Shown: piece after piece, positions 5,193 through 33,824 of the stretch
Numbering within the stretch: position 1 is the first letter of the stretch
Layout: every line of letters begins with the position of its first letter
NCBI GenBank assembly: GCA_964291235.2
Contig: OZ219816.1
Span: 1,728,001-1,792,000 of the forward strand
Direction of reading: 5' to 3'
From: Vicinamibacteria bacterium
GTDB lineage: Bacteria; Acidobacteriota; Vicinamibacteria; Marinacidobacterales; Marinacidobacteraceae
Length of the DNA: 64,000 bases
Notes under the pieces: generated by a model
Database searches by the model: none
What the model was told of the DNA's origin: nothing
Seen by the model: only the letters and a program-made list of their open reading frames with translations
Program-made: the position numbers and the translations under genes

Positions 5193-6305
5193 TCAGACGG
5201 CTCCGGACAGCACCAGGAACACGTAGCCCTTCGCCTGCCGGAGTTGGTTGCCGGAAATGACCAGCTTGATGTGGTGAATGCCGCGTAGCAGCACGTAGCG
5301 GCCGGACTTCGCAAAGAGGGTTGTCGGTTTCGAAACCCAGTCGGCCAGCGCTGTCAGCTTCTCCGAGACTACGAGATCCTCATGGCTCAGGGCTTTCAGG
5401 AACGGTTCCCAATCGGTGAGGCCGTCGAGCCAATAGCGTGAACTCTTGGTGTATCGCTGCTTGACGATGAGCGTCAGGCCGAGTGTCGGACCGACGCCCT
5501 CTTCCTGCAAGTCAATGTTCACCCCGGTTCGGACCACGTTCGCGCGTTCCTCGAAGCGCTGAATCACCGCTTCGACGGCCGCGAGCTGGCCTGGCCAGCC
5601 CGTGCTTTCGAGGTACGACCCTACTTCCCGCTGCGATTGGAAGCCCATGACCGCCAAGCGGATCGCCCGTGAGCGGGACGGGAATACGCCGAACGAGTCC
5701 ATGCGAGTGTCTTCCGGCTGCGCCAGGTAAACGCGTTCGACGTTCGCCCGTTCGGCGTCACGCAGCTCCCAGCCGACGCCGGAGACGAGCGCGCCAACCA
5801 CGGTAACGGCGTCGTGTCCCTGACCGCGGGCGCCCATTATGGGTCGTTCGCCGGGCCGCAGGAATATTCCTGGAAGCGAGCCCTGACCGTCCCGAGCGGA
5901 GCCGATGTCATGTTCCAGCATCAGCTTGCGGCCCACGATCGCACGCAGGGGGGAGTCTTCCGCATCCATCCGGCGGAACAATCGCCCGATCACTCTTGCG
6001 GTCTCATCGGCAGGATCGGTCCGTTCGCGCTCCCGGAAAAACGCCGCCGTCCTGGTTCCGCTCGCGAGGGAGACGCCGAGATCCGCTCTTGGCTCCGGCG
6101 CATGCAGCGGCAGCTCGAAGCCGAACGGCAAGGCGCCCATCGTGATCGGAAGTTCCCGGGCGCGCTCGAGCACGAGGCCCCATTCCGGATCGCCGATAAG
6201 AACCGGCGAGATCCTGTTTCGGAAATGCCCGAGCAGTTCGCACATGGTGCCGCCTTCCTCGGCGAGACGATCCTCGGTGAGGGTGACTGCCTGGTCAAGT
6301 TTCAT
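5193..6305 (-). CDS. Cluster-associated protein, putative ABBA/PT-barrel prenyltransferase-like
   Basis: Last gene of operon; paralog of 23865..25001 (PFGFELPL, RKLMLE, RGIHHIK, KxY). Fold is inferred from five beta-hairpin-like motif pairs. Confidence 0.55.
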   Translation of the reverse strand: MKLDQAVTLTEDRLAEEGGTMCELLGHFRNRISPVLIGDPEWGLVLERARELPITMGALPFGFELPLHAPEPRADLGVSLASGTRTAAFFRERERTDPADETARVIGRLFRRMDAEDSPLRAIVGRKLMLEHDIGSARDGQGSLPGIFLRPGERPIMGARGQGHDAVTVVGALVSGVGWELRDAERANVERVYLAQPEDTRMDSFGVFPSRSRAIRLAVMGFQSQREVGSYLESTGWPGQLAAVEAVIQRFEERANVVRTGVNIDLQEEGVGPTLGLTLIVKQRYTKSSRYWLDGLTDWEPFLKALSHEDLVVSEKLTALADWVSKPTTLFAKSGRYVLLRGIHHIKLVISGNQLRQAKGYVFLVLSGAV

Positions 6306-6314
6306 GTTGCGTCC

Positions 6315-8657
6315 TCACGCGATCACGGGTGCGGGATTCAGATCGGCTTCGGCGAGAGGGTGGTTGCGATGGCCCATCCTGACGGGCACGTCGTAGAGAC
6401 GGCCGGGGGCGAATCGTGCCCAGAAGTGCCGCATTCCGGGCACGATGACCCGCGCCACGGGCATACCGATGTCGGGCCGGGTCTGATCCAGCACCAGCAA
6501 CTCCATGCCCTTCGCTTCGACGAGCGCACGGCAGTTCTCCACATCGTCGCGCGTGTCTGCCGTTTCGATCGCCGCATACCGCGAAGCCTTGCACTGCGGT
6601 GCGTCAGCCGGCGCCAGCCAGGAACAATCGGCGAGACGAGCGGTTTTCCACCACCAAAGCGCCAGTGGGTCATCAATCGCGGGCCGGCCGTCTCTGCTCC
6701 CCGGCCGTGGCAGCCAGGTAAGGCATTGGTTCAGTTCGCACATCGCCCGCAGCGCCGCGATGCGCGGGTCGGCGTGGGCGCCGGCGCCGTAGATGATGTC
6801 CTCGGTCTGGCCCTCCGGCCTGCGCGAGAGCGCGACGAAGGTGGGAATGCCTATATCGGAGGTGACGTCGAGCATCCACACGTCCCGCTCGTAGCGGGCG
6901 TAGTGCTCTGGGGCCGATGCGAGGTAATCGTCGTCGAAGGTGGCGAGATCGACCGCCGGGGCCCGCAGCCGGTTGTACCACCAGATTGCGAACGCATCGC
7001 GCTCTACCAGTTCATAAAAGCCCTGCAGGACGGCTTCTTCCAGGGTATTGCCGGCAGCGCAGCCGTTCGAATCGGCGATCAGGTCCGCAGGGCCGCGCCG
7101 TTCGGCGGGCATGCTGTAGAGCATGGACGTCGGCAGATAGCGATGCCGCTGCTGCGTCAGCGACCACGCCGGTGTCCAGTCGATTTCGGCGTCGGGATCG
7201 AGACGCTGCGGGACGATGTTGTACGGATGACCCTTCGCGTTGATGCTTGCGGCATTGTCGAACTGATGGTCGCTGAACAATTGCGCGTCGTTGGGATGGA
7301 TGGCCTCGCCGCCCGCGAACTCCCTGAACCGCCTCCGCAGGCGGATCTCATCTCCACTGCACGCGCCCGAATGGCGTTCGACCGCTTCGCAGAGCGCGCT
7401 GACCCTGGATTGCTCCCGAGTGGCGCCCTTGCCGGCGCTCTTGCTCCGGAGGCTGCGCCGGAGCGAACTCAGGGTTCGGCTTCTCACGCCGAGATTGCTG
7501 CCGGCCCAATAGACGTGCAGCCACGAATCGTTCTCATCGGTGGTGCGCGACAGCCAGGTCACGACCCCACTGATCGGGCTCACCAGGTGGCGGTATTTCG
7601 CCAGCGTGACTTCCGGCGACACGGTGCGTGCGCCGCCGCTGTTGCGGTGAGCCTTGGGACTCGCTTTGAGAGACAGCGGCACCGGAAGCCGGTCCGGCCG
7701 ATGGAGCGCTTCGTCGCCACAGGCCGGGCACTGCGGCCGGCGCACTACGGGGTGTTGCGAACTCGTGAAGGTGCCGACGTTCATGGCAATCGCGTGTTCG
7801 TGAATCGGGGCCGCGTCCTCCAGCACGAGCCACTTGACGATTTCGGCCGCGATCAGCCGGTAGAGCGCCTCCAGAACCGCGGGCTGGGCCGCGAACGGCT
7901 TGAAGGCCGCCTGGTCGCCGGCAATGTTGCGCAGAAAACCGTGGACCTCCTGATGGCTTCCCAGCCGGTACGCCAGACAGTCCCAGCAGGGTCCTTGTTC
8001 GCCCGCGTGAAAGACGGGGCCGAACAGCGCCTCCATGCCACGCGGCCGCACCAGCGTCCACGCCGCTTTCGCCTCGAGCTGGCGCCGATTCACTGCTGCA
8101 AGGTGCGTCTCGAGGTAGTCCTCGCAAACGATGACGGTGAGCGTGGGATCGGTAGTCCCCACGACGGCGCCGCCCTCCTCGAGATGCCGAATGAACTGGC
8201 TCTCGTCACCGTTGACCGCGATGCGCGATTCCGCCAGCCGCCTTTCGACCCAGCGCGGGGATGCGCCGAGCGACGACCAATAGGCGGCCCGGCGGCGGTC
8301 CATGCCGTGATCGGCAGAAACGACATAACCCTTGGCCGAAAGCGACCCAAGGGCCGAGAAGACCTCGGAGGCGGCATGGACGCCCTCCACGGCGGCGACG
8401 ATCGCATCCAGCGGGTGCTGACCATCGAGGAGCGGTAGCAGGTTGCAATACAGCTTGCCGTGCAGCAGGGTGTTGAAGGTTTCGGAAACCAGCAGCGTCT
8501 GCTGGTCGCCAATCTGGTGAAACCGGAGGTGCGGTGCGAGAGCAGGAAGCTTGACCAGTCCCCGGTCCGCGGAGGTTCTTCGCGGCAGGATTCCGGGCCG
8601 GGAATTCGTGTCCGTATGCCTTGCCAGCGGGGACTTCCGCGCCGAATCAGCCGGCAT
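6315..8657 (-). CDS. srpC: Fused RRE/E1-like-YcaO cyclodehydratase (TOMM C-D fusion)
   Basis: PCWDCL and PQCPACG; SAGKG, ALCEAVER, SNGCAAG, ELVERDA; Pro-rich end LNPAPVIA. Start ATG 8657 just after upstream stop. Symbol by analogy to the srp cluster. Confidence 0.92.
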   Translation of the reverse strand: MPADSARKSPLARHTDTNSRPGILPRRTSADRGLVKLPALAPHLRFHQIGDQQTLLVSETFNTLLHGKLYCNLLPLLDGQHPLDAIVAAVEGVHAASEVFSALGSLSAKGYVVSADHGMDRRRAAYWSSLGASPRWVERRLAESRIAVNGDESQFIRHLEEGGAVVGTTDPTLTVIVCEDYLETHLAAVNRRQLEAKAAWTLVRPRGMEALFGPVFHAGEQGPCWDCLAYRLGSHQEVHGFLRNIAGDQAAFKPFAAQPAVLEALYRLIAAEIVKWLVLEDAAPIHEHAIAMNVGTFTSSQHPVVRRPQCPACGDEALHRPDRLPVPLSLKASPKAHRNSGGARTVSPEVTLAKYRHLVSPISGVVTWLSRTTDENDSWLHVYWAGSNLGVRSRTLSSLRRSLRSKSAGKGATREQSRVSALCEAVERHSGACSGDEIRLRRRFREFAGGEAIHPNDAQLFSDHQFDNAASINAKGHPYNIVPQRLDPDAEIDWTPAWSLTQQRHRYLPTSMLYSMPAERRGPADLIADSNGCAAGNTLEEAVLQGFYELVERDAFAIWWYNRLRAPAVDLATFDDDYLASAPEHYARYERDVWMLDVTSDIGIPTFVALSRRPEGQTEDIIYGAGAHADPRIAALRAMCELNQCLTWLPRPGSRDGRPAIDDPLALWWWKTARLADCSWLAPADAPQCKASRYAAIETADTRDDVENCRALVEAKGMELLVLDQTRPDIGMPVARVIVPGMRHFWARFAPGRLYDVPVRMGHRNHPLAEADLNPAPVIA

Positions 8658-8659
8658 TC

Positions 8660-9970
8660 TCAGGCGGTCAGGACTCCGACAAGGCGCTCCAGAGCTTCCA
8701 CACAAAACGCGGAGGTCACGGCTTCGGAGCCGTGTCCGATCTGCCCGACGGCGCCCCATTTCAGCGTCTGGTCGCCGAACGCCAGAAACTCCGGCCAACT
8801 GCCGTCCTCGCGTTGTGAACTCAGGAGCCGCTCCACCTGGCGTTTCACGCCAATGCTCTTGAGGCTTCCGACGCCATCGAGCGCCGACACTGCCTGGGCG
8901 GTCTGAAGGATGTTGCCGAATTCCCCGTTCTCGTCGCGCAACGCCAGAATGCGGTCCGCGAGTATCGGCCGTAGTCGAGCCAGAGCAGGCCGCGCGCGAA
9001 CCATGGCGCGGACGGTCGCATAGTAGATCGCGACCGTGTCGGGATACCACTTGGATGAGCCCTCGACCTTGCCTTCGGTGATCAGAGCCTCCAGCCACCT
9101 TTGGGCGTCCCTGGTTTCGGGGCAGGCGCCAAGATAGGCGATGACATTCGCATTGACTACGGGATCCGCTTCTATCCGGAACGGCGAAACGACATCGGGT
9201 TCGTCCTCGGCCAGGACCCAGGTCAGGAAACGGCCCCGCTCATCGCGATTCGCCAGCAGTGCCGGAATGTTCCTCCCCAAGAGGATCCAGGGATGCGTCC
9301 CCAAGACCTGTGAGCAGAGGGTGGTGCTGTCGAGATCCTGGGGAAGGTGGCGGTAATACCGCCACAAACCGGGATACTCGATGGTGTTCGTAAGGTGCGC
9401 CCTGGTAGCGTCGCACATGGCCCTGGCCCGCGCTTCGTGGCAACTCTCCAGAGCCAGTACGCAAAGAGCCGAAATGAACGGCGGCCTTTCGAAGTGCCGT
9501 GGAATGTTGGGGTCGGCGACGTTGAACCGGATGCAGTGCCAAGCGCCATTTTCGTCGAGGGTGGATTCCAGAAACGCGAGACCGCGGCGGATGCTCTTCC
9601 GAGCCGATCGGGCGAGGGTTGCGGAAGTGGCGCCGCTCTTCCCGGCGCGCGGGCGCTCGGGGGTCGGCGGTCGAAGGGGCGGTGCGGGGTCGTAGAGCGT
9701 CTTCTTGAGAAACGCGAGTGATGCGGCGCCGGTCCGCGCCTCCTTTCGTTCGGACTGGCTGAGTGTGGCACGCGGCGGAAGCACCAGGTGGGTCGTGGAA
9801 TAGGTCTCTTCGTGCACGTGAATCTGGTGGCCTTCGGCCAGCTTCACGCCGAGTTCCTCTTCGATCGTGGCTTTGGGTTTCGCGAGCAGGCGTTCGCGAA
9901 AGTCGTTGTCCTCGCCGGCTCGCGATACGAGGGAGTCGGCGACGGCATTGAGTCCCTTCCTTGATGTCAC
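8660..9970 (-). CDS. NHLP-leader-like domain fused to a prenyltransferase/squalene-cyclase-repeat domain
   Basis: N-terminus RAGEDNDFRERLLAKPK...VHEE...HLVLPP mirrors precursor leaders; C-domain has LDENGAW, PQDLDST, DPVVNANV, SQREDGSW. Confidence 0.8.
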   Translation of the reverse strand: MTSRKGLNAVADSLVSRAGEDNDFRERLLAKPKATIEEELGVKLAEGHQIHVHEETYSTTHLVLPPRATLSQSERKEARTGAASLAFLKKTLYDPAPPLRPPTPERPRAGKSGATSATLARSARKSIRRGLAFLESTLDENGAWHCIRFNVADPNIPRHFERPPFISALCVLALESCHEARARAMCDATRAHLTNTIEYPGLWRYYRHLPQDLDSTTLCSQVLGTHPWILLGRNIPALLANRDERGRFLTWVLAEDEPDVVSPFRIEADPVVNANVIAYLGACPETRDAQRWLEALITEGKVEGSSKWYPDTVAIYYATVRAMVRARPALARLRPILADRILALRDENGEFGNILQTAQAVSALDGVGSLKSIGVKRQVERLLSSQREDGSWPEFLAFGDQTLKWGAVGQIGHGSEAVTSAFCVEALERLVGVLTA

Positions 9971-12906
9971 GCGATCTGCCTCCTGATCAATTCCTTGAAC
10001 ACGCCGTCGGTTTCCATGAGTTCGCTGAAGGATCCGCTCTGTACCACTTTGCCGGCCTGCAGGACATAGATGCGGTCCGCCTGTTCCAGCGTGGACAGGC
10101 GGTGGGCGATGACGAGGCGGGTGGAGGTCAGGGCGGCGAGGTTCTTCATTACCCTGGCCTGGTTTTCGTTGTCCAGCCAGTTGGTTGCCTCATCGAACAG
10201 CATGATCCGCGGACTGCCGATCACCGAGCGGGCGATCGTCACCCGCTGACTTTCGCCGCCCGACAGGACAGCCCCGCTGGTCCCCACCATGGTCATCAGG
10301 CCCATGGGCATTCCCTTGATTTCGCTTTCGACCTCGGCGGTGCGGACGGCCGTCCAGACCTCCTTGCTCGTCACTCCGTCGTGGTGGCTGACCAGGTTGT
10401 CCCACAGATCCAGGGGATGAAGCCGGACGGACTGCGGCACCGCGCCGACCTGCCGGCGCACCTGCTTCAGGTTCAAGTGCCTCAGGTCGCGCCCGTCGTA
10501 GTACACGGCGCCGGCACTCGGCCGGTCGACTCCGAGTGCGAGCCGGAACAGGGTGCTCTTGCCAGCGCCGGACTCCCCGGCGATCGCCACGAATTCGCCA
10601 GGACGGGCGCGAAGGGTGACATCGTCCAGAATCAAAGGGCCGTCGGGGTCGTAACGGAAGGAAACACGGTCGAAGAGAAGCTCGCCGCCCAGCGAGTCGA
10701 CCGGTTCTCCTTCGAGTTCGGTCTCGGGAACCGCGGCGAGCAGGGGGCGCATCTGATCGAACGCCGGGACCATGGAGGCAACGGCGCCGAAGGACTCGCC
10801 GAGCCGGGCGACTGCGGACTGGAAGGCGATGAAGACGGTGTAAACGACGAGAAAATCGCCAACCGGAACGTTCCGGTCGCCCACTGCCACGGCCAGGAGC
10901 AGTACCCCACCGGCAAGAAAGGGAAGTGCGGCGCCGAAGGCCCGCGAGTGCCCCTCGAGTGCGCCCAGTTCGAGTTCCGCGCGTTTCTGCTCGCGATAGT
11001 CCCGCGCCCAGATGGCGAAAGCCGATCCTTCGGCGTTTTCCACCCGCAGCTTGGTGATTCCGCCCACGATCTGGAACAGCCGGCCGGCTACGCGACGGGC
11101 CGCGCCGATCATCTGCCCATGAGGGGATACCTGGCGTAAACCGAGCGCCACGGTGATCAGGACCGAAGCCAGGCTGAAGATCAGGGCGACGGTCCCAAGG
11201 CCGGTGTCATAGAAGAAGATGACGGCCAACACCGGAAGCAGGAAAACGACCGACAGCAGGCTGTCGGCGACGACTCCCTGCAAGCCGTCGCGAAGACTCT
11301 GGAACGTCATTCCCGACATGGCCAGATCGCCGGCCGGACGGCGGCGGAGAACGCTGGGCGGAAGCCGCATGAGGCGGTCCCAGAAGGCGGCTTCGACCCG
11401 CGACGCCGAGCGTCCCTCGAGCCGCATCATCGCGGTGCTCTGCAGCAGGTGCAACAGTGCGCCGAGCAGGCCGAACGCGGCCACCGTCACGGCCACGGCA
11501 TAAAGCGCTGAGGTGCTTCCGCCGTCCGTCAGGTGGTGGGCAACGAATCCGAGCGCGAGGGCCGGCACCAGCTTGACCAGGCCGCCCGGAAGCCCGGCAA
11601 CCACCAGCCGCGCCAGGTCCGGGCCCGATCCATGGAGGGCCGTTCCGAGGAGCTCTGCCGGTTTCACGCTGCCGGGCGGCAAGGGCCGATAGAACATCCA
11701 GGCTTCCTCGCCCAGCGTGCGGGCGCGATCCGGCGTGATCCGGACACCGCGCTTGCTGACCGGGTCCACCTCCCGGTAGCGCCCGAAGATTCCCGGCAGG
11801 AGCGCTACGGGCCGGCCGTCCTCCGCGCGGAATGCCAGCAGCGCGTTGCTGTCGCCGTGCCACCAGTCGCCCTCGGCCTTGAACCGCACCCGCCGGGCGC
11901 GTACGCCGGACGCATCGAGCACGTCAACCAGGCCGACTCGAGCATCAGATGCACCCGAACGCGCCGGAATCCTGAAATCGATTCCTTCACGGCGGCCGAT
12001 GATCCGGAGGGCGTCCGCCAGAGCCGCGTCATCGACTCTCGCACCTCGATCGGTCGGAAGGTCGTAGATATTGAAGAGCCGCTGCCGCGCCGCCTTTGCG
12101 GCCCGGCGGCGGCTGGTGGTCCGTGCGCGTTCGAGATTGGCATCGTCAACCGTGGCGAGTCGGCGGTTGTGGCGCTCGAGGGCGAACGCGGCCGTGTGGA
12201 AGGAGGCGAGCGCCCGCGGCAGCATGCCGCGTTCCGCCAGGGTCTTTGTTGATTCGCCGGAAAGGGTGACCTTGTCGAACAGGCTGAGCCAGCTCGTTCG
12301 CGTCAGCGGTACCGGAGTCCGACTGGCGCCGCTCGTCCCGGCGAGTTCCGCCGGGTCCACGATCCCCATGAACAGGCTTGCGCCGCGCGGCGGTTCGGAT
12401 ACCCAGACCACCCCGCGCCGCACGGACAGCGTACAAGGGGCCAGGGTCTGGGTGACACCGGGTTCGGCCAGGGCGGTTGCACGCGGAAGGCGGCTTGCAA
12501 AACGCGAAAGCGTGTCCGTTATGGCGGTCAACCAGGTATCCGTCTGTTCCCCCAGTTCCGACGGATCGACCTCTGACAGCAATGACGCCGACAGGCGCTT
12601 CAGAATGGTGCCGGGCAATCCCTTGGCAATCAGGCTGAGCGTCGCGCCTTCGTCGCTCTCCCGTTCGTCCGGTGCGACACCCGGAAGCAGACAGCCCGAT
12701 TCGCGCCGCAACAGGTGCTGCGGCGCCGCTCGTTCCACCCGGTCCTTGAGTTCGACCAGAAACAGATTGACCGAACCCCGATCAATGAACCAGACAGTGT
12801 CTGGGTCATCGAGTTCCACCGGCAGGTTGCCGGCGCAGGGCACAGACGTCCCGGAGCGGGCCGCGAGTTCGGCCAACGATGTGTATCGCGGTCTCGTGTC
12901 GTGCAT
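9967..12906 (-). CDS. NHLP export ABC transporter permease/ATPase
   Basis: Walker A GESGAGKST, LSGGESQR, MLFDEAT; TM block; TGATG coupling at 12906. Confidence 0.92.
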   Translation of the reverse strand: MHDTRPRYTSLAELAARSGTSVPCAGNLPVELDDPDTVWFIDRGSVNLFLVELKDRVERAAPQHLLRRESGCLLPGVAPDERESDEGATLSLIAKGLPGTILKRLSASLLSEVDPSELGEQTDTWLTAITDTLSRFASRLPRATALAEPGVTQTLAPCTLSVRRGVVWVSEPPRGASLFMGIVDPAELAGTSGASRTPVPLTRTSWLSLFDKVTLSGESTKTLAERGMLPRALASFHTAAFALERHNRRLATVDDANLERARTTSRRRAAKAARQRLFNIYDLPTDRGARVDDAALADALRIIGRREGIDFRIPARSGASDARVGLVDVLDASGVRARRVRFKAEGDWWHGDSNALLAFRAEDGRPVALLPGIFGRYREVDPVSKRGVRITPDRARTLGEEAWMFYRPLPPGSVKPAELLGTALHGSGPDLARLVVAGLPGGLVKLVPALALGFVAHHLTDGGSTSALYAVAVTVAAFGLLGALLHLLQSTAMMRLEGRSASRVEAAFWDRLMRLPPSVLRRRPAGDLAMSGMTFQSLRDGLQGVVADSLLSVVFLLPVLAVIFFYDTGLGTVALIFSLASVLITVALGLRQVSPHGQMIGAARRVAGRLFQIVGGITKLRVENAEGSAFAIWARDYREQKRAELELGALEGHSRAFGAALPFLAGGVLLLAVAVGDRNVPVGDFLVVYTVFIAFQSAVARLGESFGAVASMVPAFDQMRPLLAAVPETELEGEPVDSLGGELLFDRVSFRYDPDGPLILDDVTLRARPGEFVAIAGESGAGKSTLFRLALGVDRPSAGAVYYDGRDLRHLNLKQVRRQVGAVPQSVRLHPLDLWDNLVSHHDGVTSKEVWTAVRTAEVESEIKGMPMGLMTMVGTSGAVLSGGESQRVTIARSVIGSPRIMLFDEATNWLDNENQARVMKNLAALTSTRLVIAHRLSTLEQADRIYVLQAGKVVQSGSFSELMETDGVFKELIRRQIA

Positions 12907-15116
12907 CAGCCTGACCTGATCAGCTTGTAATACGACCCATCCCGGTCCGCCATCAGTTCGTCGTGCGTGCCGCGTTGCGCTTCCGCGCCCTTGTTGAGCA
13001 CGATGATCTCGTCGCAGTCCCGCACGGTGCTGAGCCGGTGCGCCACGATCAGGCAAGTGACGCCGCGTCGCCGCAAGGCGTCGTCCACGTATTCCTCGGT
13101 TGCTGCATCGAGGGCGCTCGTTGCCTCGTCCAGAACGAGCACTGTCGGATGGCCCACGAGCGCGCGGGCGATTTCGAGTCTTTGGCGCTGGCCGCCGCTG
13201 AAGTTCGCCCCGCCTTCTTCGACGATGGTCGAGTACCCGTCCGGTCTCACCAGGATTTCGTCATGGATCCATGCATCCCGGGTGGCGGCGAAGATGGCTT
13301 CATCCGGAATCGCCGGGTTCCAAAGGGTGATGTTGTCGCGTAGAGATGCGGAAAACAGCACGACATCCTGATCCACCATGGAGATGGACTGCTGGAGAAC
13401 TTCCTCGGGTATCTCGTCCCGCAAGTGGCCGTCGAACAGGATCTCGCCCGACCAGGGCTGATAGACACCGGAAACGAGCCGAGCCAGCGTCGACTTGCCA
13501 GAACCGCTGGGACCGACCACGGCAACCCGCTGGCCGGGCTTGAGTACCAGGTTGAAGTTCTCGATCAGCGGCGCCCGACTCTTGTTGAACCCGAAGGTGA
13601 TGTTCCGCAGTTCGAGGCGGCCGGTAAGCTGGAGCCGGCCGTTGAATGTGGGGATGGATTCTGATTCCGGGCTCCGCCGGCTGAAAACGGGATCTTCGGT
13701 GGCGGCGGATATGTCGTCCAGGCGTTGCAGATCCGTTTCGAGCGCCTGGCGTTTGTCGGCGAACTCCAGGAAACGGTCCACCGGCGCCAGGAACATTTCC
13801 GCGAGGACGAAGAACGCCACCAGCGTTCCCAGGGTCATTTCGCCATTCAGGACCAGGCTCCCTCCGATACCCAGGACCGCCGCACTGCGGACTGCGGCGA
13901 TGAGGCCCGGAAGCGCGGAACTAATGGAGCCCAGTTCGGAATAGAGCTGACGCGCATGGAGTTCGCGCGCCTGCTGGCCGCTCCAGCGCGAAAAGAACCG
14001 GTCATCCGATCCCGTCATGCGCAGGTTTTCCGCATGACTCAACATCTGCATGCCGACGCCGATCAGCAGCCCCTGTTCGCGCCGCATCGCCCGGCTGCGA
14101 ACGGCCTGGGGTCCGTTGACCAGGTGGGCCACCGCTCCGTGGAGAACCGCCAGGAGCACCACGACCAGGGCAAGCAGGGCATCGTAGGCCACCATGGCGA
14201 CGAGCAACACCACGCTCATCGCCATGTCGATGATGAGCACGAGGAACTGGTCGGTCAGGTTCTTCGCGATCCTGTCGATAGACGAGACCCGATCGGTCAG
14301 GTCGCCCACCAGCCGGTGCGCGAAGAACTCGACCGGCAACCGCAGCAGGCGTGTCACGCCCCGGTTGTATCCGGTCACCGAGATCCGGACTGCGAGCCGT
14401 TTCAGGAATCGGTGCTTGAGCAACGACAGTATGTAGACCAGGACGCCGCCGCCCAACAGGGCCACCACCACACCGATCCACGGCCCATGGTTCTCCAGGA
14501 CGTCGTCCACGAAAACACCGATCGTCGCCGGCACGATGAGCGCCAGCAAGGTCAACATGAGCGCGCAGGCGGTTACTCCGGCAAGCACGCTCCATGATCC
14601 GGCGAGCAACGAGCCCAACTCCGCGAAGAGGCTGCGCTGTTCGCCTCCCGTGCTGAAGTCGGCGCCACGTTTGAATCGCAGGGCGATTCCACTGAAGCCC
14701 TCGCAAAACTCCTCGACGGAAAGCTTGCGTCGCCCCGTGGAGGGGTCGTTGAGGTAGTAACTGGTGCCATCGAATCCTTCGAGGACCACGAAATGGCTGA
14801 ATTGCCAGAACAGAATCAGCGGTAGTTCCAGGTGTCTCAGTTGATCGGCGCGTACGCTGAGTCCTTTGCACTCGAGACCGTAGTGTCTGGAGGCGCGCCG
14901 GATGCTGGCGGCACTACTCCCGTCCCGACTCACCTCGCATCTTTCGCGCAGTTCGGTGAGTGGCACAAAGCGCCCGAAGTAGGCCAGGATGCTGCCGAGG
15001 CATGCGGCGCCACATTCCGACGCGTGCATCTGCAACACAATGGGCGTGGTGATCCTTCGCTTCGAGGACTCCGATGCGGCCCTGCCGCGAGTCCTTCCGG
15101 AAGCGCGTGGCGCCAT
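12906..15116 (-). CDS. NHLP export ABC transporter with C39 peptidase domain
   Basis: QMHASECGAACL, SHFVV, LNDP triad; GPSGSGKST, FSGGQRQR. Confidence 0.94.
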   Translation of the reverse strand: MAPRASGRTRGRAASESSKRRITTPIVLQMHASECGAACLGSILAYFGRFVPLTELRERCEVSRDGSSAASIRRASRHYGLECKGLSVRADQLRHLELPLILFWQFSHFVVLEGFDGTSYYLNDPSTGRRKLSVEEFCEGFSGIALRFKRGADFSTGGEQRSLFAELGSLLAGSWSVLAGVTACALMLTLLALIVPATIGVFVDDVLENHGPWIGVVVALLGGGVLVYILSLLKHRFLKRLAVRISVTGYNRGVTRLLRLPVEFFAHRLVGDLTDRVSSIDRIAKNLTDQFLVLIIDMAMSVVLLVAMVAYDALLALVVVLLAVLHGAVAHLVNGPQAVRSRAMRREQGLLIGVGMQMLSHAENLRMTGSDDRFFSRWSGQQARELHARQLYSELGSISSALPGLIAAVRSAAVLGIGGSLVLNGEMTLGTLVAFFVLAEMFLAPVDRFLEFADKRQALETDLQRLDDISAATEDPVFSRRSPESESIPTFNGRLQLTGRLELRNITFGFNKSRAPLIENFNLVLKPGQRVAVVGPSGSGKSTLARLVSGVYQPWSGEILFDGHLRDEIPEEVLQQSISMVDQDVVLFSASLRDNITLWNPAIPDEAIFAATRDAWIHDEILVRPDGYSTIVEEGGANFSGGQRQRLEIARALVGHPTVLVLDEATSALDAATEEYVDDALRRRGVTCLIVAHRLSTVRDCDEIIVLNKGAEAQRGTHDELMADRDGSYYKLIRSG

Positions 15117-15117
15117 C

Positions 15118-15660
15118 CTAGGATCGCCCCATCCGCAAGAGTTGGACGGGAGACTGCCTGCCCAGTTCGATGACAATCCGGCACTCCCGATCCGTCAGGG
15201 AAGCAAGGTCAACGCTTTCTTCGAGCGCGATGTCGACGCGATACACCGCGACTGCGGATCCGAACGCCGCCAGTCCCTCGGAAAGGGGTACGGCGGAAAT
15301 CGCCGTCACCTTTCCGTCCAGCGTATCTGCCCCATCTTCGGTGGTCAGCACCAGGACCGCCGGCATCCCGGACCTGATCTGCGGCGCGAGGTCGCGCTCG
15401 ACCTGGACAAGCGCCTGGACGGACGTGCTGCCCTCGGTCAGGATTCCGCCAGGGTCGGCCAGTACTCCGTTCACCGCCCGGCGGTGGGCCACGTCACCAA
15501 ATAAGAGCCACCCGGTGAGGGCGAACAACAAAAGACCAATCGCGGCGACGAGCAGCCGCTCCCGGGGTGTCGAAATCGTCAACAACCGGTCGAGTTGTTC
15601 GCGTTCTTCCTTTGCCTCCGCAACAGTGTTGTGAAATGAGCCAAATGGATTGTTGAACAC
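15118..15660 (-). CDS. Short (internally deleted) HlyD-like NHLP secretion protein
   Basis: EQLDRLLTISTPRERLL + one TM; aligns to 36210..37097 at both ends but lacks its centre; GTG start 15660 after GGAGG. Confidence 0.8.
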   Translation of the reverse strand: MFNNPFGSFHNTVAEAKEEREQLDRLLTISTPRERLLVAAIGLLLFALTGWLLFGDVAHRRAVNGVLADPGGILTEGSTSVQALVQVERDLAPQIRSGMPAVLVLTTEDGADTLDGKVTAISAVPLSEGLAAFGSAVAVYRVDIALEESVDLASLTDRECRIVIELGRQSPVQLLRMGRS

Positions 15661-15700
15661 GACCGTGCATTGCCTCCGTTGAAGTGTTCCAGGACCGGCA

Positions 15701-16975
15701 CTAACGCCCAAGGCCCTCGGACATCTGGGCGTAACTGGTGAGCGGGACCGCGCACATCCGACTCAAGTCTGCCTGTTCGACGACGGGCTGGTTCAGTAGT
15801 TCGATCATTGCGTCGAACTTGTGGAGTGCGCCGCAACCAGTCACGTCGGGGTCCGCTGCCTTGCGGTATTGCGGCCATGCGGCGTCGCGGGCGTGGCGCC
15901 AGAACGCGCTGTCGTACCCGGAGCCACAGGAATAGTGCCAACCGACGAACAGGCCGTAGCAGAGCATGTTGCTGACAAGAAACCGATTGACGACAAGCGC
16001 ATCTTGCTCAAGGTTCTCTACCGGGCGGTTGAGACGAATCTGGAGCACCATCCCGATTTGAAACTGGGCGGATACGATTGCCGTTGCTTCGAGCGGCTCC
16101 ATGAACGCCGCTGCGTTGCCTATCCGGGCTACCGCGCCATCGTACATCTTGCGGTGGACAAAATTGGGAAACGAAATGACGGCGCGCTGCTCGAACTCCG
16201 TTACGCCGTCGGTCTGGAGGAACGCGTCGAAATCCGACTCGACGTCAGCGAGGCCGGATACCTCGCGGTTGAAGATGTACCCGTAGGACGTGTGTACGGT
16301 AAGAGGAATAACGAAGATCCAACCGTGTGGACGCGCAACCGCACGGGTATAGGTGTGCTCCAGAACGGGCACATCCTGCTCGGCGTTGACAACTGCCGGA
16401 CCGCGGCGGATAACGGCGGTATCGGTGGGGATGAAAGGAATGTGGATGTGCCGGTCGGGATCGAGTTCCCCAGGAAACCCGCGGGCATCGAAGACCAGGT
16501 CGTAACGTTCAGGCGCCCGATCCTCGAATTCCACGTGCGCCCCGCCGTCAACGCTGGAGATGTTGAGCACTTTCGCGTCGATGTGGCGTGCGCGCGTGTT
16601 TTCCTGCAGCAGCTCCGACATGACGTCGGCGGATAGATGGTAGGCGTAGGACACCTGTTGCGGGGTGAAGTGGTGGATGAAATCCCGACCGCGCCGACCC
16701 CATCCCTCGAATGCAACACCGTACTTGCGAGTACCTTTCAGACGTATCTGGACGGTCTCCTGGGGCAGATCCGTCAATTGCTGCAGATGCTGAACGAGGC
16801 TCGGCCAACTGCCTTCACCCACTCCGATGACCGGGATGCGCGAGTCATAGATGTGGTGTAGCTCGTGGTCTTTGTCGGGGTGGAGACGCGTTACGGTTGC
16901 GGCCGCCAAAGACCCTGCGGTTCCTCGCCCGACGACCGCGATCTTCCGGAGAGATTCGCTGCCTGCTTGTACCAC
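15701..16975 (-). CDS. srpI: Flavin-dependent tryptophan (peptidyl) halogenase
   Basis: VVGRGTAG, GVGEGS, TRKYG (catalytic Lys), GWIFVIP, FMEPLEAT; near a Trp-terminated precursor. Confidence 0.88.
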   Translation of the reverse strand: MVQAGSESLRKIAVVGRGTAGSLAAATVTRLHPDKDHELHHIYDSRIPVIGVGEGSWPSLVQHLQQLTDLPQETVQIRLKGTRKYGVAFEGWGRRGRDFIHHFTPQQVSYAYHLSADVMSELLQENTRARHIDAKVLNISSVDGGAHVEFEDRAPERYDLVFDARGFPGELDPDRHIHIPFIPTDTAVIRRGPAVVNAEQDVPVLEHTYTRAVARPHGWIFVIPLTVHTSYGYIFNREVSGLADVESDFDAFLQTDGVTEFEQRAVISFPNFVHRKMYDGAVARIGNAAAFMEPLEATAIVSAQFQIGMVLQIRLNRPVENLEQDALVVNRFLVSNMLCYGLFVGWHYSCGSGYDSAFWRHARDAAWPQYRKAADPDVTGCGALHKFDAMIELLNQPVVEQADLSRMCAVPLTSYAQMSEGLGR

Positions 16976-17124: not shown

Positions 17125-17340
17125 TCGAGCACCAGAACCTAGGTTTACCTGACTGAGGAACAGCGCCGGCGGATTGACACCCTGACGGAGGCGGAGGGAA
17201 TCACCTTGGCCGAGGTCGTCCGCGGAGCGCTTGACGACTACTTCAAGCGGCAGTCCGCCGACGTGGAGGCGGCGCTTTCCGCGACCTTCGGAGCGGCGCC
17301 GGATGCATCGGTGCCCGGTCGGGAGGAGTGCGATCGTGGC
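17125..17340 (+). pseudogene. vapB: Decayed CopG/RHH antitoxin
   Basis: STRT*VYLTEEQRRRIDTLTEAEGITLAEVVRGALDDY...; TAG at 17140-17142; no stop at the expected toxin overlap. Confidence 0.75.
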
Positions 17341-17480
17341 GGACGTGCTGGTGGACACCGACGTCTTCCTCGATCACCTGCGCGGAGCCCGGCCACTGCG
17401 GACGGAGGGCCGCCGGTTGCACTACTCCGTCATCACTCGCCCTGAGCTGTTCTCTGGAACTCGCGGGGTTCCGGAGGCTG
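17336..17480 (+). pseudogene. vapC: N-terminal half of a split vapC
   Basis: GTG start, MADVLVDTDVFLDHLRG...YSVITRPELFSG, then PIN similarity is lost. Confidence 0.8.
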
Positions 17481-17532
17481 AGGCCTTACCCAGCACTCGG
17501 ACAGAAGAAGTCCGCAAGAACAGCGACCCTAA

Positions 17533-17556
17533 GACCCCCGGTCAGAAGCCGGGGTC
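17533..17556. terminator. Hairpin downstream of precursor 1
   Basis: GACCCCCGG-TCAGAAG-CCGGGGTC inverted repeat; no long U tract. Confidence 0.45.
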
Positions 17557-17625
17557 ATTCCAAGCGCTGTGAGTGCGGTTCGGATCGCTCCGCATCTTCC
17601 CCGGCCAGTCGCCAGCTACCGAGGT

Positions 17626-17877
17626 TTACCAGCAGCAGCAAAGGCCAGCCGAAATCGCTTCGAGTTGCTCCTCAGTGATGTTCGGGTCCGGCGGCAACGC
17701 GAGATGCACCGTCTGCATGTCGCTCTCGTGGACCTTGATGGTCATCGAATCGGGAATCGAAATGCCCAATTCCCCACTAATCGCGGCCTTTGGGTCAGCG
17801 AGCAGTTGACGCCTGAAGTTCGCGTCCACCGCAGATTTCCCAACGACATGCTGCAACATCTCATTGCCGTTTCTCAT
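17626..17877 (-). CDS. srpE: NHLP-leader RiPP precursor 1, core LCCCW
   Basis: RBS AAGGAGG; leader DANFRRQLLADPKAAI...VHES...HLALPP...EEQLEAISAG; core LCCCW*. Confidence 0.95.
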   Translation of the reverse strand: MRNGNEMLQHVVGKSAVDANFRRQLLADPKAAISGELGISIPDSMTIKVHESDMQTVHLALPPDPNITEEQLEAISAGLCCCW

Positions 17878-18492: not shown

Positions 18493-19362
18493 CTACCCCG
18501 GCCGGGTGCCGGAAAGGAAGTGGTAGGTGAAGAGACCCTCCTTCAGACCCCGGTCGTAGGCGACGGTCGCCTCCATGAACTCCCGGGACGCCTGGTTCGG
18601 CAGACTATCGGGGTCGATCACGAGTGTGAGCATCAGCCAGTTCTTCCGGAGGGTGTCCGTGTGCCGCGCCACCTCGGTGGAGAGGTCGCGGCCCGTCACC
18701 GCTGCGAACCCCGCTTCCTCGAGAGTTGCGAGCACTTCCCGCCACGGCTCCAGGGGGGGCATACGCCAGCCGCGCCGCGCAATGGCGTGAATCGCTTCCT
18801 GGGATTCGGAGACCGGCGCACCGCTCCGGAGTCCTTCGAGGGCCTGCCATTTTCCCCCCGGCTTCAGCACCCGGTAGATGCCCTGGAGGTAGGCGAGCTT
18901 GTCCGGCGCATAGCAGAAGGACTCATGGTTCAACACCGCATCGAACGTCCCGTCCAAGAACGGCAGATCCATGAAGTCGCCGGAGCGGAAATCGACCAGG
19001 TGGCCGACCCCGCGCTCCTCGGCGTGTTTCGTGGCCACTTCGATGTGGGGCTCGCAGATGGTCAGTCCGGTGACGTGGACGCCGTGCGCCTCCGCGAGCG
19101 TGATTGCCGTCCCGCCGACCCCGCAGCCGGCATCCAGCACCCGCCGCCCCGGGCAGAGGTCGCATCCGTCCACGAGCGTGCGGTTGGCGCGGACCAGCGC
19201 CTCGCGATCGTTCGTCGTCTCCGGTCCCCAAAGGCCGAAGTGGGTCGCCAGCAGGTCTCCGCCGAAGTCCTCCATCTGTTTTGTCAACGCGGCATAGTGC
19301 TCGGAAACCGAGCTGCCCCATTCCGGATTGCGCTGCGGCGGGCGTGGGTCGCGGTCCATCAC
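18493..19362 (-). CDS. Class I SAM-dependent methyltransferase (sterol/tocopherol-MT-like)
   Basis: HFGLW, VLDAGCGVGG, RVLKPGG. Confidence 0.9.
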   Translation of the reverse strand: MMDRDPRPPQRNPEWGSSVSEHYAALTKQMEDFGGDLLATHFGLWGPETTNDREALVRANRTLVDGCDLCPGRRVLDAGCGVGGTAITLAEAHGVHVTGLTICEPHIEVATKHAEERGVGHLVDFRSGDFMDLPFLDGTFDAVLNHESFCYAPDKLAYLQGIYRVLKPGGKWQALEGLRSGAPVSESQEAIHAIARRGWRMPPLEPWREVLATLEEAGFAAVTGRDLSTEVARHTDTLRKNWLMLTLVIDPDSLPNQASREFMEATVAYDRGLKEGLFTYHFLSGTRPG

Positions 19363-20690
19363 CCCAGCGACCTCAGCGACGAATCCGGGTTGTCAGCGAA
19401 CGGCAGGTCGTTCCCGCGGAAGACCCGTTTCGGATCGAACTCGCGCTTCCACTGCCGCCCCCGTTCGAAGTTCTCGCCATAGTGCTCCTTCCATTCGGCG
19501 CGTCCGTAGCCCACCCGGCCGGACAGATAGCTCTTTCCTCCGAGTTCGACGAGAGCCCGATCGACCTCCCGCAGCCTTTCCACCAACCCGGTTGCCTCCT
19601 CGTAGGTTCGCGCCACGCAGAGGACCGAGTACGAGGTCATCCGTTCCACGTCCGGACGCATGAAGAGTGGGGCGTCGTCCCTCTTCATTCTGATCGGGTA
19701 CATCCCGATCCAGTTCCAGGGAGATGGCGGCACCCACTCCGGATCCAGCCACGGCTGGGCAATCAGCTTGGGAAGGGTCTCCCAGGGCAGGAACCAGTCG
19801 CGCCACGGGTGGTAGTTGGTCCGGCTGAACCCCCACTTCGGATACATCCCGGCGCGTCCCACCTCGTCGGTGTCTCTGGCCCAGATGATCTTGTCGTGCC
19901 CCAACCCGTCGAGGGCCTTCCCATCGTACTGCTCCCCGTCGTACTCGGAGCCCACGGTCAGGATGATCTCCCGTTCCCGGACCCGGGTTTGCGCCCGCAC
20001 GTGATGAAACCGGTCCTCGGCGACCAGCCGCCGGAAGTCGCTCTCGAAGCGTCCGAAATCACGGTAGAGAAGCTCGTGCAGACGGATCCGCTTGCCGGCC
20101 CGGCGCAGCCGGATCCAGGCTTCGGTGATCACTCCAAACTGCCCCTGGCCACCCCGGACGGCATCGAACAGATCCGCGTTGTCGGTGCGTGAGCACCGCA
20201 GCCGTTCGCCGGTTCCGGTCACCACCTCGAGCTGCTCGACCTGGCCGGCCTGCACTCCGTGGCGGTGCGAGGTGGTCCCGAATCCCCCCGCGGCCAACGT
20301 TCCTCCCACGGTGGCCTCGGCGATGTCCACCAGTACCCGGGGCAGCCGCCCGGTTCCTTCCAGCGCGTCCACGACATCGTCCCACAGTGCGCCGCCCTGG
20401 GCTCGGATCAGCTCCTTCCCCAGCGGTTCGACGCGTTTGAGCCCGGTCGCGTCGAGGACCAGACCTCCCTCCGTGAGGCTCCCGCCACTTTGGGAATGGC
20501 CCGCTCCCCGAACGGCCACCGGGACTCCGTCCCGCCCGGCCCGGCGGACGACGCTCGCTACTTCCGCCGCGCTTTCCGGGGTCGCCACCGCCGCCGGCAT
20601 CCGCCGGATGATTCCCCCGAAGTCGGACGCCCGCGCCTCCCGTTCCTTCGCATTCACGCTCAGGCCGGGGAAGCCATCCGGTTCCAACAT
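19359..20690 (-). CDS. FAD-binding oxidoreductase (VAO/PCMH fold, cytokinin-dehydrogenase-like)
   Basis: VRGAGHSQSG, TVGGTL, GGQGQFGVIT, KREFDP; 4-bp overlap with the methyltransferase. Confidence 0.88.
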   Translation of the reverse strand: MLEPDGFPGLSVNAKEREARASDFGGIIRRMPAAVATPESAAEVASVVRRAGRDGVPVAVRGAGHSQSGGSLTEGGLVLDATGLKRVEPLGKELIRAQGGALWDDVVDALEGTGRLPRVLVDIAEATVGGTLAAGGFGTTSHRHGVQAGQVEQLEVVTGTGERLRCSRTDNADLFDAVRGGQGQFGVITEAWIRLRRAGKRIRLHELLYRDFGRFESDFRRLVAEDRFHHVRAQTRVREREIILTVGSEYDGEQYDGKALDGLGHDKIIWARDTDEVGRAGMYPKWGFSRTNYHPWRDWFLPWETLPKLIAQPWLDPEWVPPSPWNWIGMYPIRMKRDDAPLFMRPDVERMTSYSVLCVARTYEEATGLVERLREVDRALVELGGKSYLSGRVGYGRAEWKEHYGENFERGRQWKREFDPKRVFRGNDLPFADNPDSSLRSLG

Positions 20691-23387: not shown

Positions 23388-23441
23388 TCGCACAACTGAA
23401 TGAGCTGTCCGTTGCAGGGCACAAGAAACAAGGAGGAAACC

Positions 23442-23714
23442 ATGAATCCCGAAACGATCATGCAGAGTGCTGAGGACATGCGCCGGCGTCTCACCGAGAA
23501 GGCCGTGCAGGATCCCGAGTTCCGCGCGAGTCTCGTATCCGATCCGAAGGGCGTCCTTCAGGCCGAGTACGGCATCCAGTTGCCGGACGAGGTCAGCATC
23601 GAGGTACACGAATCCGACGACAACACCGTCCATTGGGCGCTGCCGTCTTCGGCGACACTGAGCGAGAAGCAGCTCGACCAGATCGCCGCCGGCCTCTGCT
23701 GCTGCGGAATCTGA
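23442..23714 (+). CDS. NHLP-leader RiPP precursor 2, core LCCCGI
   Basis: RBS AAGGAGG; KAVQDPEFRASLVSDPK...VHES...HWALP...EKQLDQIAAG; core LCCCGI*. Confidence 0.95.
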   Translation: MNPETIMQSAEDMRRRLTEKAVQDPEFRASLVSDPKGVLQAEYGIQLPDEVSIEVHESDDNTVHWALPSSATLSEKQLDQIAAGLCCCGI

Positions 23715-23864
23715 AGCAACCGGCCCCCAGGGCCGCTTCCGTCCTCGCGTCCGCAGACCGCTGACCTGAGTTCGGAGCGCCAGCGCGGCCCCTTGCGCCG
23801 CGTTCCGGCGGGCGCTCTGTAAGCACGGAGCGTCCGCTTTGGCGTTTCCCCCGCGTCGCCTTAT

Positions 23865-25001: not shown

Positions 25002-25019
25002 GAATTCGACCCCAACAGC

Positions 25020-27356: not shown

Positions 27357-27378
27357 CCGAACGGCCTCCGGGTTGCGG

Positions 27379-28257: not shown

Positions 28258-28328
28258 CTACCGGACTCCTCGTTTCCGGGCGGGGCGGCTGCGCGGCAAC
28301 GGGTCCGACCACTCCGGGGCGCGCACGA

Positions 28329-30821: not shown

Positions 30822-30888
30822 CGTTACCTCCTTAAGGTCGCCTGATTCGGATCAGTCTGATCGTAGCACTTCGCCGGCCGCCGAACTT

Positions 30889-33813: not shown

Positions 33814-33824
33814 AACCCCTGCCG

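Follow-up and report, generated by a model that had tools for sequence, protein, structure and literature searches.

A leader-like domain fused to a predicted class II terpene cyclase in an srp-type proteusin gene cluster

Background

We analysed a 64,000-nucleotide (nt) stretch of DNA from a Vicinamibacteria bacterium (contig OZ219816.1, positions 1,728,001 to 1,792,000), referred to below as the window, and concentrated on one of its open reading frames (ORFs), which lies on the minus strand at 8660..9970 and encodes a protein of 436 amino acids (aa). A first-pass annotation of the letters alone had already reported this frame, and its coordinates held. The protein joins a domain resembling the nitrile hydratase-like leaders (NHLP) of proteusins to a class II terpene cyclase domain, and its gene lies in a cluster for a peptide that is made ribosomally and modified after translation (RiPP), of the kind named srp. 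Such clusters are said to have been discovered in sponge microbiomes by Nguyen et al. (JACS 2021).

In the available text of a 2025 review (PMC12426817), the srp cluster is described as exceptionally abundant and still cryptic in sponge microbiomes, with an unknown ecological role, and its precursor is counted among the most highly transcribed biosynthetic genes of sponge symbionts in the available part of a preprint (bioRxiv 10.1101/2023.06.09.544420). The performance of the cyclodehydratase SrpC alone on the precursor SrpE in E. coli is described as poor (PMC10286304, text available in part). Neither the cyclase-fusion gene nor any prenyltransferase or terpene cyclase was found to be mentioned in PMC12537861, PMC9426513 or the accessible part of the 2025 review, a comparison that has Nguyen 2021, Hubrich 2024 and the supplements outside its scope.

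The gene and its cluster

The gene at 8660..9970 (stop codon 8660-8662) is tightly packed between its neighbours. Its GTG start shares 4 nt (GTGA) with the stop of the upstream ABC-transporter gene, and 2 nt separate its own stop from the ATG of the YcaO gene. The protein consists of a leader-like domain, whose folded nucleus is encoded at 9758..9940 (aa 11-71) and whose tail is encoded at 9695..9763 (aa 70-92), a Pro-rich variable linker (9620..9694, aa 93-117) and a single-barrel class II terpene cyclase (TC-beta) domain (8663..9619, aa 118-436), the last identified by VIA-align, Foldseek and a family profile. The AlphaFold2 (AF2) model of the whole protein has a predicted local distance difference test score (pLDDT) of 87.9, with no predicted helix or strand at aa 92-115.

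A database search in which 8000 candidates were scored gave 1097 relatives at E <= 0.001. The best 120 of these are all 429-466 aa long and 74-95% identical to the window's protein and, where named, come from metagenome-assembled genomes (MAGs) labelled with several phyla. The order of leader-like domain, linker and cyclase is conserved in 66 full-length orthologues, over which the residue counts given below were made; since it is kept throughout these and the best relatives share one narrow length range, the architecture of the ORF is not due to chance. Mean pairwise identity among the 66 orthologues is 0.64 for residues 12-70, 0.73 for residues 71-92, 0.46 for the linker and 0.75 for the cyclase domain. 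Apart from the gene itself, its genome (3.45 Mb, 2 contigs) yields no match to the protein except the window's two NHLP precursor genes, which are 37% identical to it across residues 8-78 and 28% identical across residues 13-118. Members of the family carry the public names 'hypothetical protein' or 'nitrile hydratase subunit alpha'; their ESM Atlas cluster is automatically named 'nitrile hydratase subunit alpha family protein', and one NCBI record bears the same name. This nitrile hydratase label appears to be wrong and to stem from the leader-like domain.

The gene belongs to a minus-strand operon that reads, in order, methyltransferase, precursor, Trp halogenase, short HlyD-like protein, C39 ABC transporter, second ABC transporter, cyclase fusion, YcaO fusion and an ORF of 370 aa. 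The precursor, SrpE, is encoded by a 252-nt gene at 17626..17877 (83 aa, core LCCCW). It is followed by a flavin-dependent Trp halogenase of the SrpI type (15701..16975; Trp_halogenase E 1.3e-44), by a short HlyD-type secretion protein of 197 aa (15118..15711), which matches positions 6-75 of 421 of TIGR03794 only, by an ABC transporter with a C39 peptidase domain (12906..15176; TIGR03796 E 1e-254, Peptidase_C39 E 1e-33) and by an NHLP export ABC transporter without a peptidase domain (9967..13056; TIGR03797 E 9e-200), the starts of both transporter genes being uncertain. Downstream of the cyclase fusion lies an SrpC-type protein in which a cyclodehydratase E1-like part with a RiPP recognition element (RRE) is fused to YcaO (6315..8657; TIGR03882 E 5e-41, TIGR03604 E 1.8e-83). 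Similar short HlyD matches of the TIGR03794 type were seen in related loci.

The srp cluster is described, in the available text of its reports, by an LCCCW core, an ITEEQL motif, a 252-nt precursor gene, a YcaO protein, a Trp brominase and a spread across phyla (bioRxiv 10.1101/2023.06.09.544420; PMC10286304). With its LCCCW NHLP precursor, fused YcaO cyclodehydratase, flavin-dependent Trp halogenase and NHLP-type exporters, the locus matches these descriptions and is therefore the published srp (sponge-derived RiPP proteusin) cluster of sponge symbionts.

A scan of one genome per species gave 68 loci with the cyclase-fusion gene, all from entries titled MAG. Linkage was counted in the 49 loci whose flanks reach 6 kb or more upstream and 8 kb or more downstream of this gene. 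The 370-aa ORF accompanied it in all 49, SrpE in 46, the YcaO gene in 42 (first type) or 5 (second type), the three transport genes in 43 and the halogenase in 39. The second ABC gene was its upstream neighbour in 55 of 63 loci, and of the 55 intact SrpE genes found in the 68 loci, 53 have the core LCCCW, one LCCSW and one LTCCW. A quick maximum-likelihood tree of the 66 orthologues explains their 8 phylum labels with 15 changes, where 7 would be the minimum, and contains well-supported clades of mixed phyla; binning errors could contribute to this mixing. The four DNA runs holding more than half of the sampled words of the stretch come from four studies and are labelled sponge metagenome, and the 24 runs listed for the stretch include no RNA run.

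A copy of the precursor's leader

The N-terminus had been described in the first-pass annotation as mirroring an NHLP leader, to be given up if it hit no NHLP or nitrile-hydratase leader model. Residues 11-71 matched both models, each below its curated cut-off: TIGR03793 (NHLP leader) with E 2e-12 and 46.8 bits (cut-off 50.9), and Pfam NHase_alpha with E 5.1e-5 and 23.2 bits (cut-off 27.2). One representative of the family (P0122) passes the latter (28.9 vs 27.2). Searched against the sequences of solved structures, residues 1-100 found first the nuclear magnetic resonance entry of an NHLP leader, 8tb1 (E 1.5e-5), and then nitrile hydratase alpha chains. The nucleus is modelled as three helices (residues 4-20, 22-30 and 32-40; pLDDT 83-91) and is 37% identical to the SrpE leader. 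The N-terminus is thus a true homologue of NHLP leaders, and the homology to the cognate precursor spans both nucleus and tail.

The tail reads LSQSERKEARTG followed by AASLAFLKKTL, and the SrpE stretch that carries recognition and cleavage aligns to it as ITEEQLEAISAG followed by LCCCW. The ARTG noticed earlier at the cleavage position (A78-R79-T80-G81) falls, column by column, onto the I-S-A-G of the precursor directly ahead of its core. When positions are numbered backwards from the aligned glycine (-1), part of the SrpE pattern is kept: Gly at -1 (G81, 66/66), Ser or Thr at -11 (64/66; SrpE Thr) and Leu, Phe or Tyr at -12 (56/66; SrpE Ile). Elsewhere the family has residues of its own, with Glu for Gln at -8 (E74) and, in place of the hydrophobic residues of SrpE, Arg for Leu at -7 (R75) and Ala for Ile at -4 (A78), each in all 66 orthologues, and Thr for Ala at -2 in 57 of 66. 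E74, R75, A78, G81, S84, L88 and T91 are invariant (66/66) and F87 nearly so (65/66); beyond G81 the stretch A-x-S-L-E-F-L-x-x-T hardly varies. The 355 residues past G81 make up a helix, the linker and the enzyme domain, with no short core directly after the cleavage motif. Since the tail is about as conserved as the enzyme (0.73 against 0.75) and much more so than the linker (0.46), it is under selection of its own and not a relic.

The changed positions are those by which such leaders are read. Both hydrophobic residues of the L(X)4L motif, together with helix alpha1, are required by the YcaO RRE, and the same hydrophobic residues are the chief contact of SrpI (PMC12455567); in the accessible part of PMC12715784 they are likened to C39 binding. 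The I/L(X)4L motif of SrpE (I-T-E-E-Q-L) has become L/F(X)4R in the leader copy, and the Arg at its second hydrophobic position in every orthologue therefore argues that the copy would not be read as a substrate by the YcaO RRE, the brominase or the C39 peptidase. Going by this pattern of kept and changed residues, the leader copy is most likely a docking module rather than a cleaved tag.

A partner for such docking was looked for in two places. A complex predicted from the full YcaO protein and residues 1-118 of the fusion protein scored 0.00 (mark 0.32) in a run for which controls were not folded, which counts neither for nor against docking. In the second ABC transporter, no Pfam family matched the N-terminal 480 aa at E <= 1, so that no evidence for a peptidase-like docking domain was obtained there. 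When residues 1-100 were searched against longer proteins for leader-enzyme fusions of other kinds, the best 120 matches listed were all orthologues or fragments of the cyclase-fusion gene.

A class II cyclase fold with its catalytic residues in place

The C-terminal domain had been called terpene-cyclase-like, and its fold bears this out. By VIA-align it is closest to the C-terminal cyclase domain of the drimenol synthase AsDMS (Z 31.8, root-mean-square deviation 2.3, 282 residues aligned) and to MstE (Z 28.5 over 306 residues); for other cyclases Z lies between 22 and 28, and for unrelated alpha/alpha barrels between 18 and 19. Foldseek gave E of about 1e-11, and the family profile matched AsDMS with E 1.5e-29 over positions 23-317 of 327. 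The Pfam family SQHop_cyclase_C scores 24.4 bits, below its curated cut-off of 26.1. ESM Atlas assigns relatives to AstC-like_C, a newer family apparently missing from the Pfam set used here. We also considered whether the barrel could be a LanC-like cyclase or the beta-subunit of a protein prenyltransferase, and rejected both, as the beta-subunit of geranylgeranyltransferase II reached only E 0.35 and class II cyclases scored far above it.

Of the motifs picked out earlier, PQDLDST is present at residues 210-216, and the QW-type repeats stand in part: one is strict (QREDGSW, aa 386-392, 8795..8815, with Q386, G390 and W392 each in 66/66), and those at residues 137, 241 and 344 are degenerate. 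The acid motif, D212-L-D214-S-T216 (9323..9337), is DLDS[TSA] in the family, with D, L, D and S each in 66/66 and T, S and A in 60, 4 and 2 at the last position. The family profile places DLD[DS]T onto D331-L-D333-T-T of AsDMS, from which alignment, with the numbering anchored at D333, the other AsDMS counterparts were also taken. Y309 (9044..9046; 66/66) corresponds to Y427, and the pocket aromatics F281, F318, Y319 and F509 correspond to F165, Y205, Y206 and F398. The diphosphate-binding R378, R380 and R425 fall on R265, E267 and K307; R513 falls in an indel-bearing loop near D400-T402, where its counterpart is uncertain.

The serine in place of the last Asp of DxDD had been taken as a sign that the cyclase may be altered or inactive. 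According to the available text of PMC9128629 and PMC12365925, DxDTT is an active variant of the acid motif in which the middle Asp is the acid; D331, D333 and Y427 of AsDMS are essential, Y427 being the hydrogen-bond partner of the acid Asp, and cyclisation is Mg-independent. As DxDTT is active in AsDMS and D212, L213, D214, S215 and Y309 are invariant in the 66 orthologues, the idea that the serine marks an altered or dead enzyme is not supported, and on its conserved residues the cyclase domain does not look dead.

Most relatives of the domain have no leader. An exhaustive, profile-free search of cluster representatives gave 1703 relatives at E <= 0.001; among the best 150, nearly every one is a stand-alone protein some 300-340 aa long that aligns to residues 120-433. 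A few are fused to cytochrome P450, sulfotransferase or other domains, and only a handful carry a leader. The stand-alone relatives have the consensus LPPDLDDT, that is, the classical DxDD. An alignment of 88 rows (A1) held 22 with an N-terminus of leader length and 66 stand-alone forms of about 280-430 aa; all 21 full-length leader-fused rows read DLDS, and the remaining one (P0126, 401 aa), which is without the motif, appears incomplete. Within the phylum of the window, 4 of 401 sampled genomes matched a stand-alone relative of the cyclase domain (E <= 1e-10).

A prenyltransferase-like neighbour

The 370-aa ORF at 5193..6305 (minus strand) had been put forward as a putative prenyltransferase, and its model (pLDDT 89) has the ABBA prenyltransferase fold. 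All 50 rows shown by VIA-align were aromatic or indole prenyltransferases (Z 13-17.1), headed by the indole/Trp enzyme MpnD (Z 17.1, 304 residues aligned) and followed by CymD, DMATS1 and 6-DMATS, and Foldseek returned aromatic prenyltransferases only (E about 7e-6 to 7e-4). We refer to this ORF as P and to the cyclase as C. In the window they are separate genes with the YcaO gene between them, and they are separate in the 68 loci as well.

Elsewhere the two occur in one protein. The N-terminal half of one cyclase-domain relative, P0184, is homologous to the 370-aa ORF (25% identity over 331 aa, E 1e-4) and its C-terminal half is the cyclase domain; P0219 and P0251 align in the same way. A leaderless cyclase gene from a different genome in the phylum has a P-like gene directly upstream of it (27% identity over 347 aa, E 0.002) and a sulfotransferase gene adjoining. 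Two further candidates for such fusions were rejected: P0182, with a weak Trp_DMAT match, has an N-terminus without similarity to the 370-aa ORF, and a 647-aa frame around a cyclase match in genome G110 likewise lacks this similarity and appears to be a spurious upstream extension.

Leaderless cyclase relatives were observed beside sulfotransferase-like genes at two loci, L077 (G361:C93, 804..3687) and L078 (G270:C16, 16..3373), one of which also has a P-like gene and the other radical S-adenosylmethionine (SAM) and methyltransferase genes. These loci may be other peptide-terpene clusters.

Enzymes in which the two activities are joined have precedents. Hubrich et al. (Chem 2024) are reportedly the source of NctPC and ChrPC, prenyltransferase-cyclase maturases of ribosomal peptides. 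As described in the accessible part of a review (PMC13290415), NctPC joins a prenyltransferase domain of ABBA fold to a cyclase domain resembling MstE and geranylgeranylates a Trp of a ribosomal peptide before cyclising the chain, and ChrPC is a second prenyltransferase-cyclase whose P part has a different fold. Compared with these by description, the srp pair has the same elements, an ABBA-fold prenyltransferase-like protein, an MstE-like single-barrel class II cyclase and a Trp-bearing ribosomal peptide, and its cyclase domain has relatives that carry, in fusion, a homologue of the 370-aa ORF. It differs in that P and C are separate genes, the cyclase bears a copy of the substrate's NHLP leader and has the acid motif DLDS[TSA], and the pair sits within a YcaO/halogenase cluster whose core has only five residues. 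The srp cluster and the PC-type enzymes have thus both been published, and the srp pair resembles the latter in split form.

The closest single enzymes by structure and sequence are AsDMS (PDB 9mhs, 9m7d) and the AstC-like cyclases. AsDMS shares with the srp protein a hydroxyl residue in place of the last Asp of the acid motif and the conserved catalytic Asp, Asp and Tyr. It differs in having a HAD phosphatase domain, which the srp protein lacks, in its set of diphosphate-binding arginines, which is only partly matched, and in its substrate, farnesyl diphosphate as opposed to what is presumed here to be a prenylated peptide. MstE of Scytonema (PDB 6sbb-6sbg), like the srp domain a monodomain single barrel (about 350 aa), cyclises a prenyl chain that is already on an aromatic head group, as the titles of the PDB entries and the available text of PMC12365925 have it. 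It has no leader domain and a non-peptide substrate, and is 17-19% identical in structural alignments. From SrpE and other NHLP (proteusin) leaders, finally, to which it is homologous over the whole leader, the N-terminal domain is set apart by preceding an enzyme instead of a short core, by its score below the curated cut-off and by its L/F(X)4R motif and Ala at -4.

Proposed role and alternative explanations

We propose, with moderate confidence, that the product of the gene at 8660..9970 serves as the cyclase in a split peptide prenyltransferase/cyclase pair and is tethered by a copy of the leader that has been re-tuned. What the data show directly is the homology, the fold, the conservation of catalytic residues, the linkage of the genes and the existence of fusions; from these we infer the chemistry, the site of prenylation and the docking role. 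The 370-aa protein would attach an oligoprenyl chain to the core of SrpE, most likely to its C-terminal Trp, which the halogenase of the cluster would brominate. The cyclase domain would then protonate the chain through D214, held by D212 and Y309, and cyclise it. The N-terminal domain would be a duplicated SrpE leader that has kept the nucleus and a conserved tail and no longer acts as the leader of a substrate, Arg at -7 and Ala at -4 having replaced the hydrophobic residues read by the YcaO RRE, the brominase and C39 peptidases. As a built-in docking module it may hold the cyclase within the leader-dependent maturation and export machinery, and so stand in for the covalent link of the fused P-C enzymes.

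A fuller version of this proposal, which we regard as tentative and below an even chance, is that a tailoring enzyme has captured the leader of its own substrate as a docking domain and that this leader was reshaped against peptidase, brominase and RRE, the product being a brominated thiazoline pentapeptide whose C-terminal Trp bears a cyclised terpene. The first-pass annotation had also arrived at a brominated, terpenylated and thiazoline-bearing product. As a prediction this is reasonable, because the locus combines an NHLP-leader homologue, a class II cyclase fold and an ABBA-fold neighbour.

Several points weigh against the split-pair proposal. The available text of the published srp work mentions cyclodehydration and bromination only and describes SrpE, SrpC and SrpI alone (bioRxiv 10.1101/2023.06.09.544420; PMC10286304). 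The changes at -7 and -4 that would keep the leader copy from being read as a substrate also weaken docking through any known leader-binding mode. The 370-aa protein matches no Pfam or NCBIfam model; its assignment to the ABBA class is that of a predicted fold with 6-13% identity to its matches, and a shared fold, here taken from a model, shows no function. Neither half of the fusion protein reaches the curated cut-off of its family (TIGR03793, 46.8 vs 50.9; SQHop_cyclase_C, 24.4 vs 26.1). Two of the four diphosphate-binding arginines of AsDMS have basic counterparts, R265 and K307, so that the substrate may instead be free prenyl diphosphate. Finally, a second NHLP cluster in the window, with a core, LCCCGI, that has no Trp and with neither cyclase nor halogenase, keeps an ABBA-like paralogue of the 370-aa ORF, and the prenylation site may for this reason not be Trp.

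The alternative that survives best, which we still consider unlikely, is that the leader copy is an export tag, sending the cyclase to the C39/ABC exporter, where it would be cut after T80-G81 or pass uncut, so that the enzyme acts outside the cytoplasm. The place of the gene would suit this, directly after the second ABC gene in most loci and here overlapping it by 4 nt, as would the positions that are kept or uniform in the tail (G81 and E74 in 66/66, Ser or Thr at -11, Leu, Phe or Tyr at -12). Class II cyclisation is cofactor-free, and the cyclase step of AsDMS is Mg-independent in the accessible text of PMC12365925. The residues at the would-be cleavage site are another matter, with Arg at -7 and Ala at -4 in 66/66 and Thr at -2 in 57/66 where SrpE has Leu, Ile and Ala. 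Double-glycine peptidases need hydrophobic residues at -4 and -7 and a small one at -2. In addition, an alpha/alpha barrel of 320 aa would have to pass the exporter unfolded, and the SLEFL..T stretch after G81 is as conserved as the enzyme, which would be odd for a discarded junction. Among the roles offered earlier for the leader mimic, the sequence argues against that of a normal cleavable tag, and also against binding to the RRE, the C39 peptidase or the brominase in the known mode, the homology to the leader itself standing firm.

It also seems improbable that the protein is a decoy or regulator whose leader copy, by competing with SrpE for the proteins that read leaders, controls in which order or at what flux modification proceeds, or a non-catalytic binder whose barrel only holds the lipidated product, as an immunity protein or chaperone. 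A leader paralogue with altered recognition residues would fit the former, and the poor action of SrpC alone on SrpE in E. coli, as given in the available part of PMC10286304, hints at missing partners. The changes at -7 and -4 should, however, weaken and not strengthen competition for the known readers, and D212, D214 and Y309 are invariant, with the aromatics F165, Y205, Y206 and F398 kept, as expected of an active enzyme.

We give little weight to activation in cis, in which a bound leader would keep the cyclase switched on and let it act after cleavage on the pentapeptide, by then without its leader. Such activation is how engineered fusions of a leader to a lanthipeptide synthetase work, and the linker between the leader-like domain and the enzyme is flexible. 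On the other side, cyclase relatives without a leader domain stand alone in 66 of the 88 rows of A1, and no leader-binding element was seen in the barrel. That the 436-aa protein is itself a giant precursor, its long 'core' being modified by the enzymes of the cluster, is hardly credible. The protein does begin like a precursor, but its long domain has the conserved fold of an enzyme, its catalytic residues intact, and a separate, highly conserved true precursor is found in 46 of 49 loci.

What the split pair would mean for srp products

Should the cyclase and the 370-aa protein act as a split prenyltransferase/cyclase pair, the srp product would be lipidated and far more hydrophobic than the peptide, brominated and thiazoline-bearing, that three genes have so far been used to make. 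The addition and cyclisation of a prenyl chain would then explain why the srp product has not yet been found, and predicts masses to search for. Partners such as the cyclase-fusion protein may likewise be what SrpC alone was missing in E. coli. The most widespread RiPP cluster of sponge microbiomes would have half of its chemistry undescribed in the accessible text of the published work. A natural enzyme carrying a re-tuned copy of the leader of its substrate would show a RiPP pathway put together in a new way and would offer, if the docking role is right, a ready-made design for leader-guided recruitment of enzymes.

Other genes of the window

Directly upstream of the precursor gene, at 18493..20690 (minus strand), lie a SAM methyltransferase and an FAD-linked oxidase (FAD_binding_4, with a C-terminus like that of cytokinin dehydrogenase); of the 49 loci with sufficient flanks, only 3 have the methyltransferase again. 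Two small overlapping ORFs were observed on the plus strand between the genes for the halogenase and the precursor (17206..17572); by eye they resemble an antitoxin and a truncated PIN protein and have no NCBIfam match at E <= 0.01.

The second NHLP cluster extends over 23400..36047. Its precursor lies on the plus strand (23400..23714), and on the minus strand follow the ABBA-like paralogue, which is 38% identical to the 370-aa ORF (23865..25001), a second YcaO fusion (25020..27404), a methyltransferase (27379..28257), a protein in which an AlkB-type membrane fatty-acid-desaturase domain is fused to a GlnE-like domain (28329..30821) and two ABC transporters (30889..33813 and 33825..36047). An AlkB-type desaturase/GlnE-like fusion of 800-830 aa was also seen between the cyclase-fusion and YcaO genes in 36 of the 68 srp loci, and one such copy (L012:11348-13744) is 51% identical to that of the window's second cluster.

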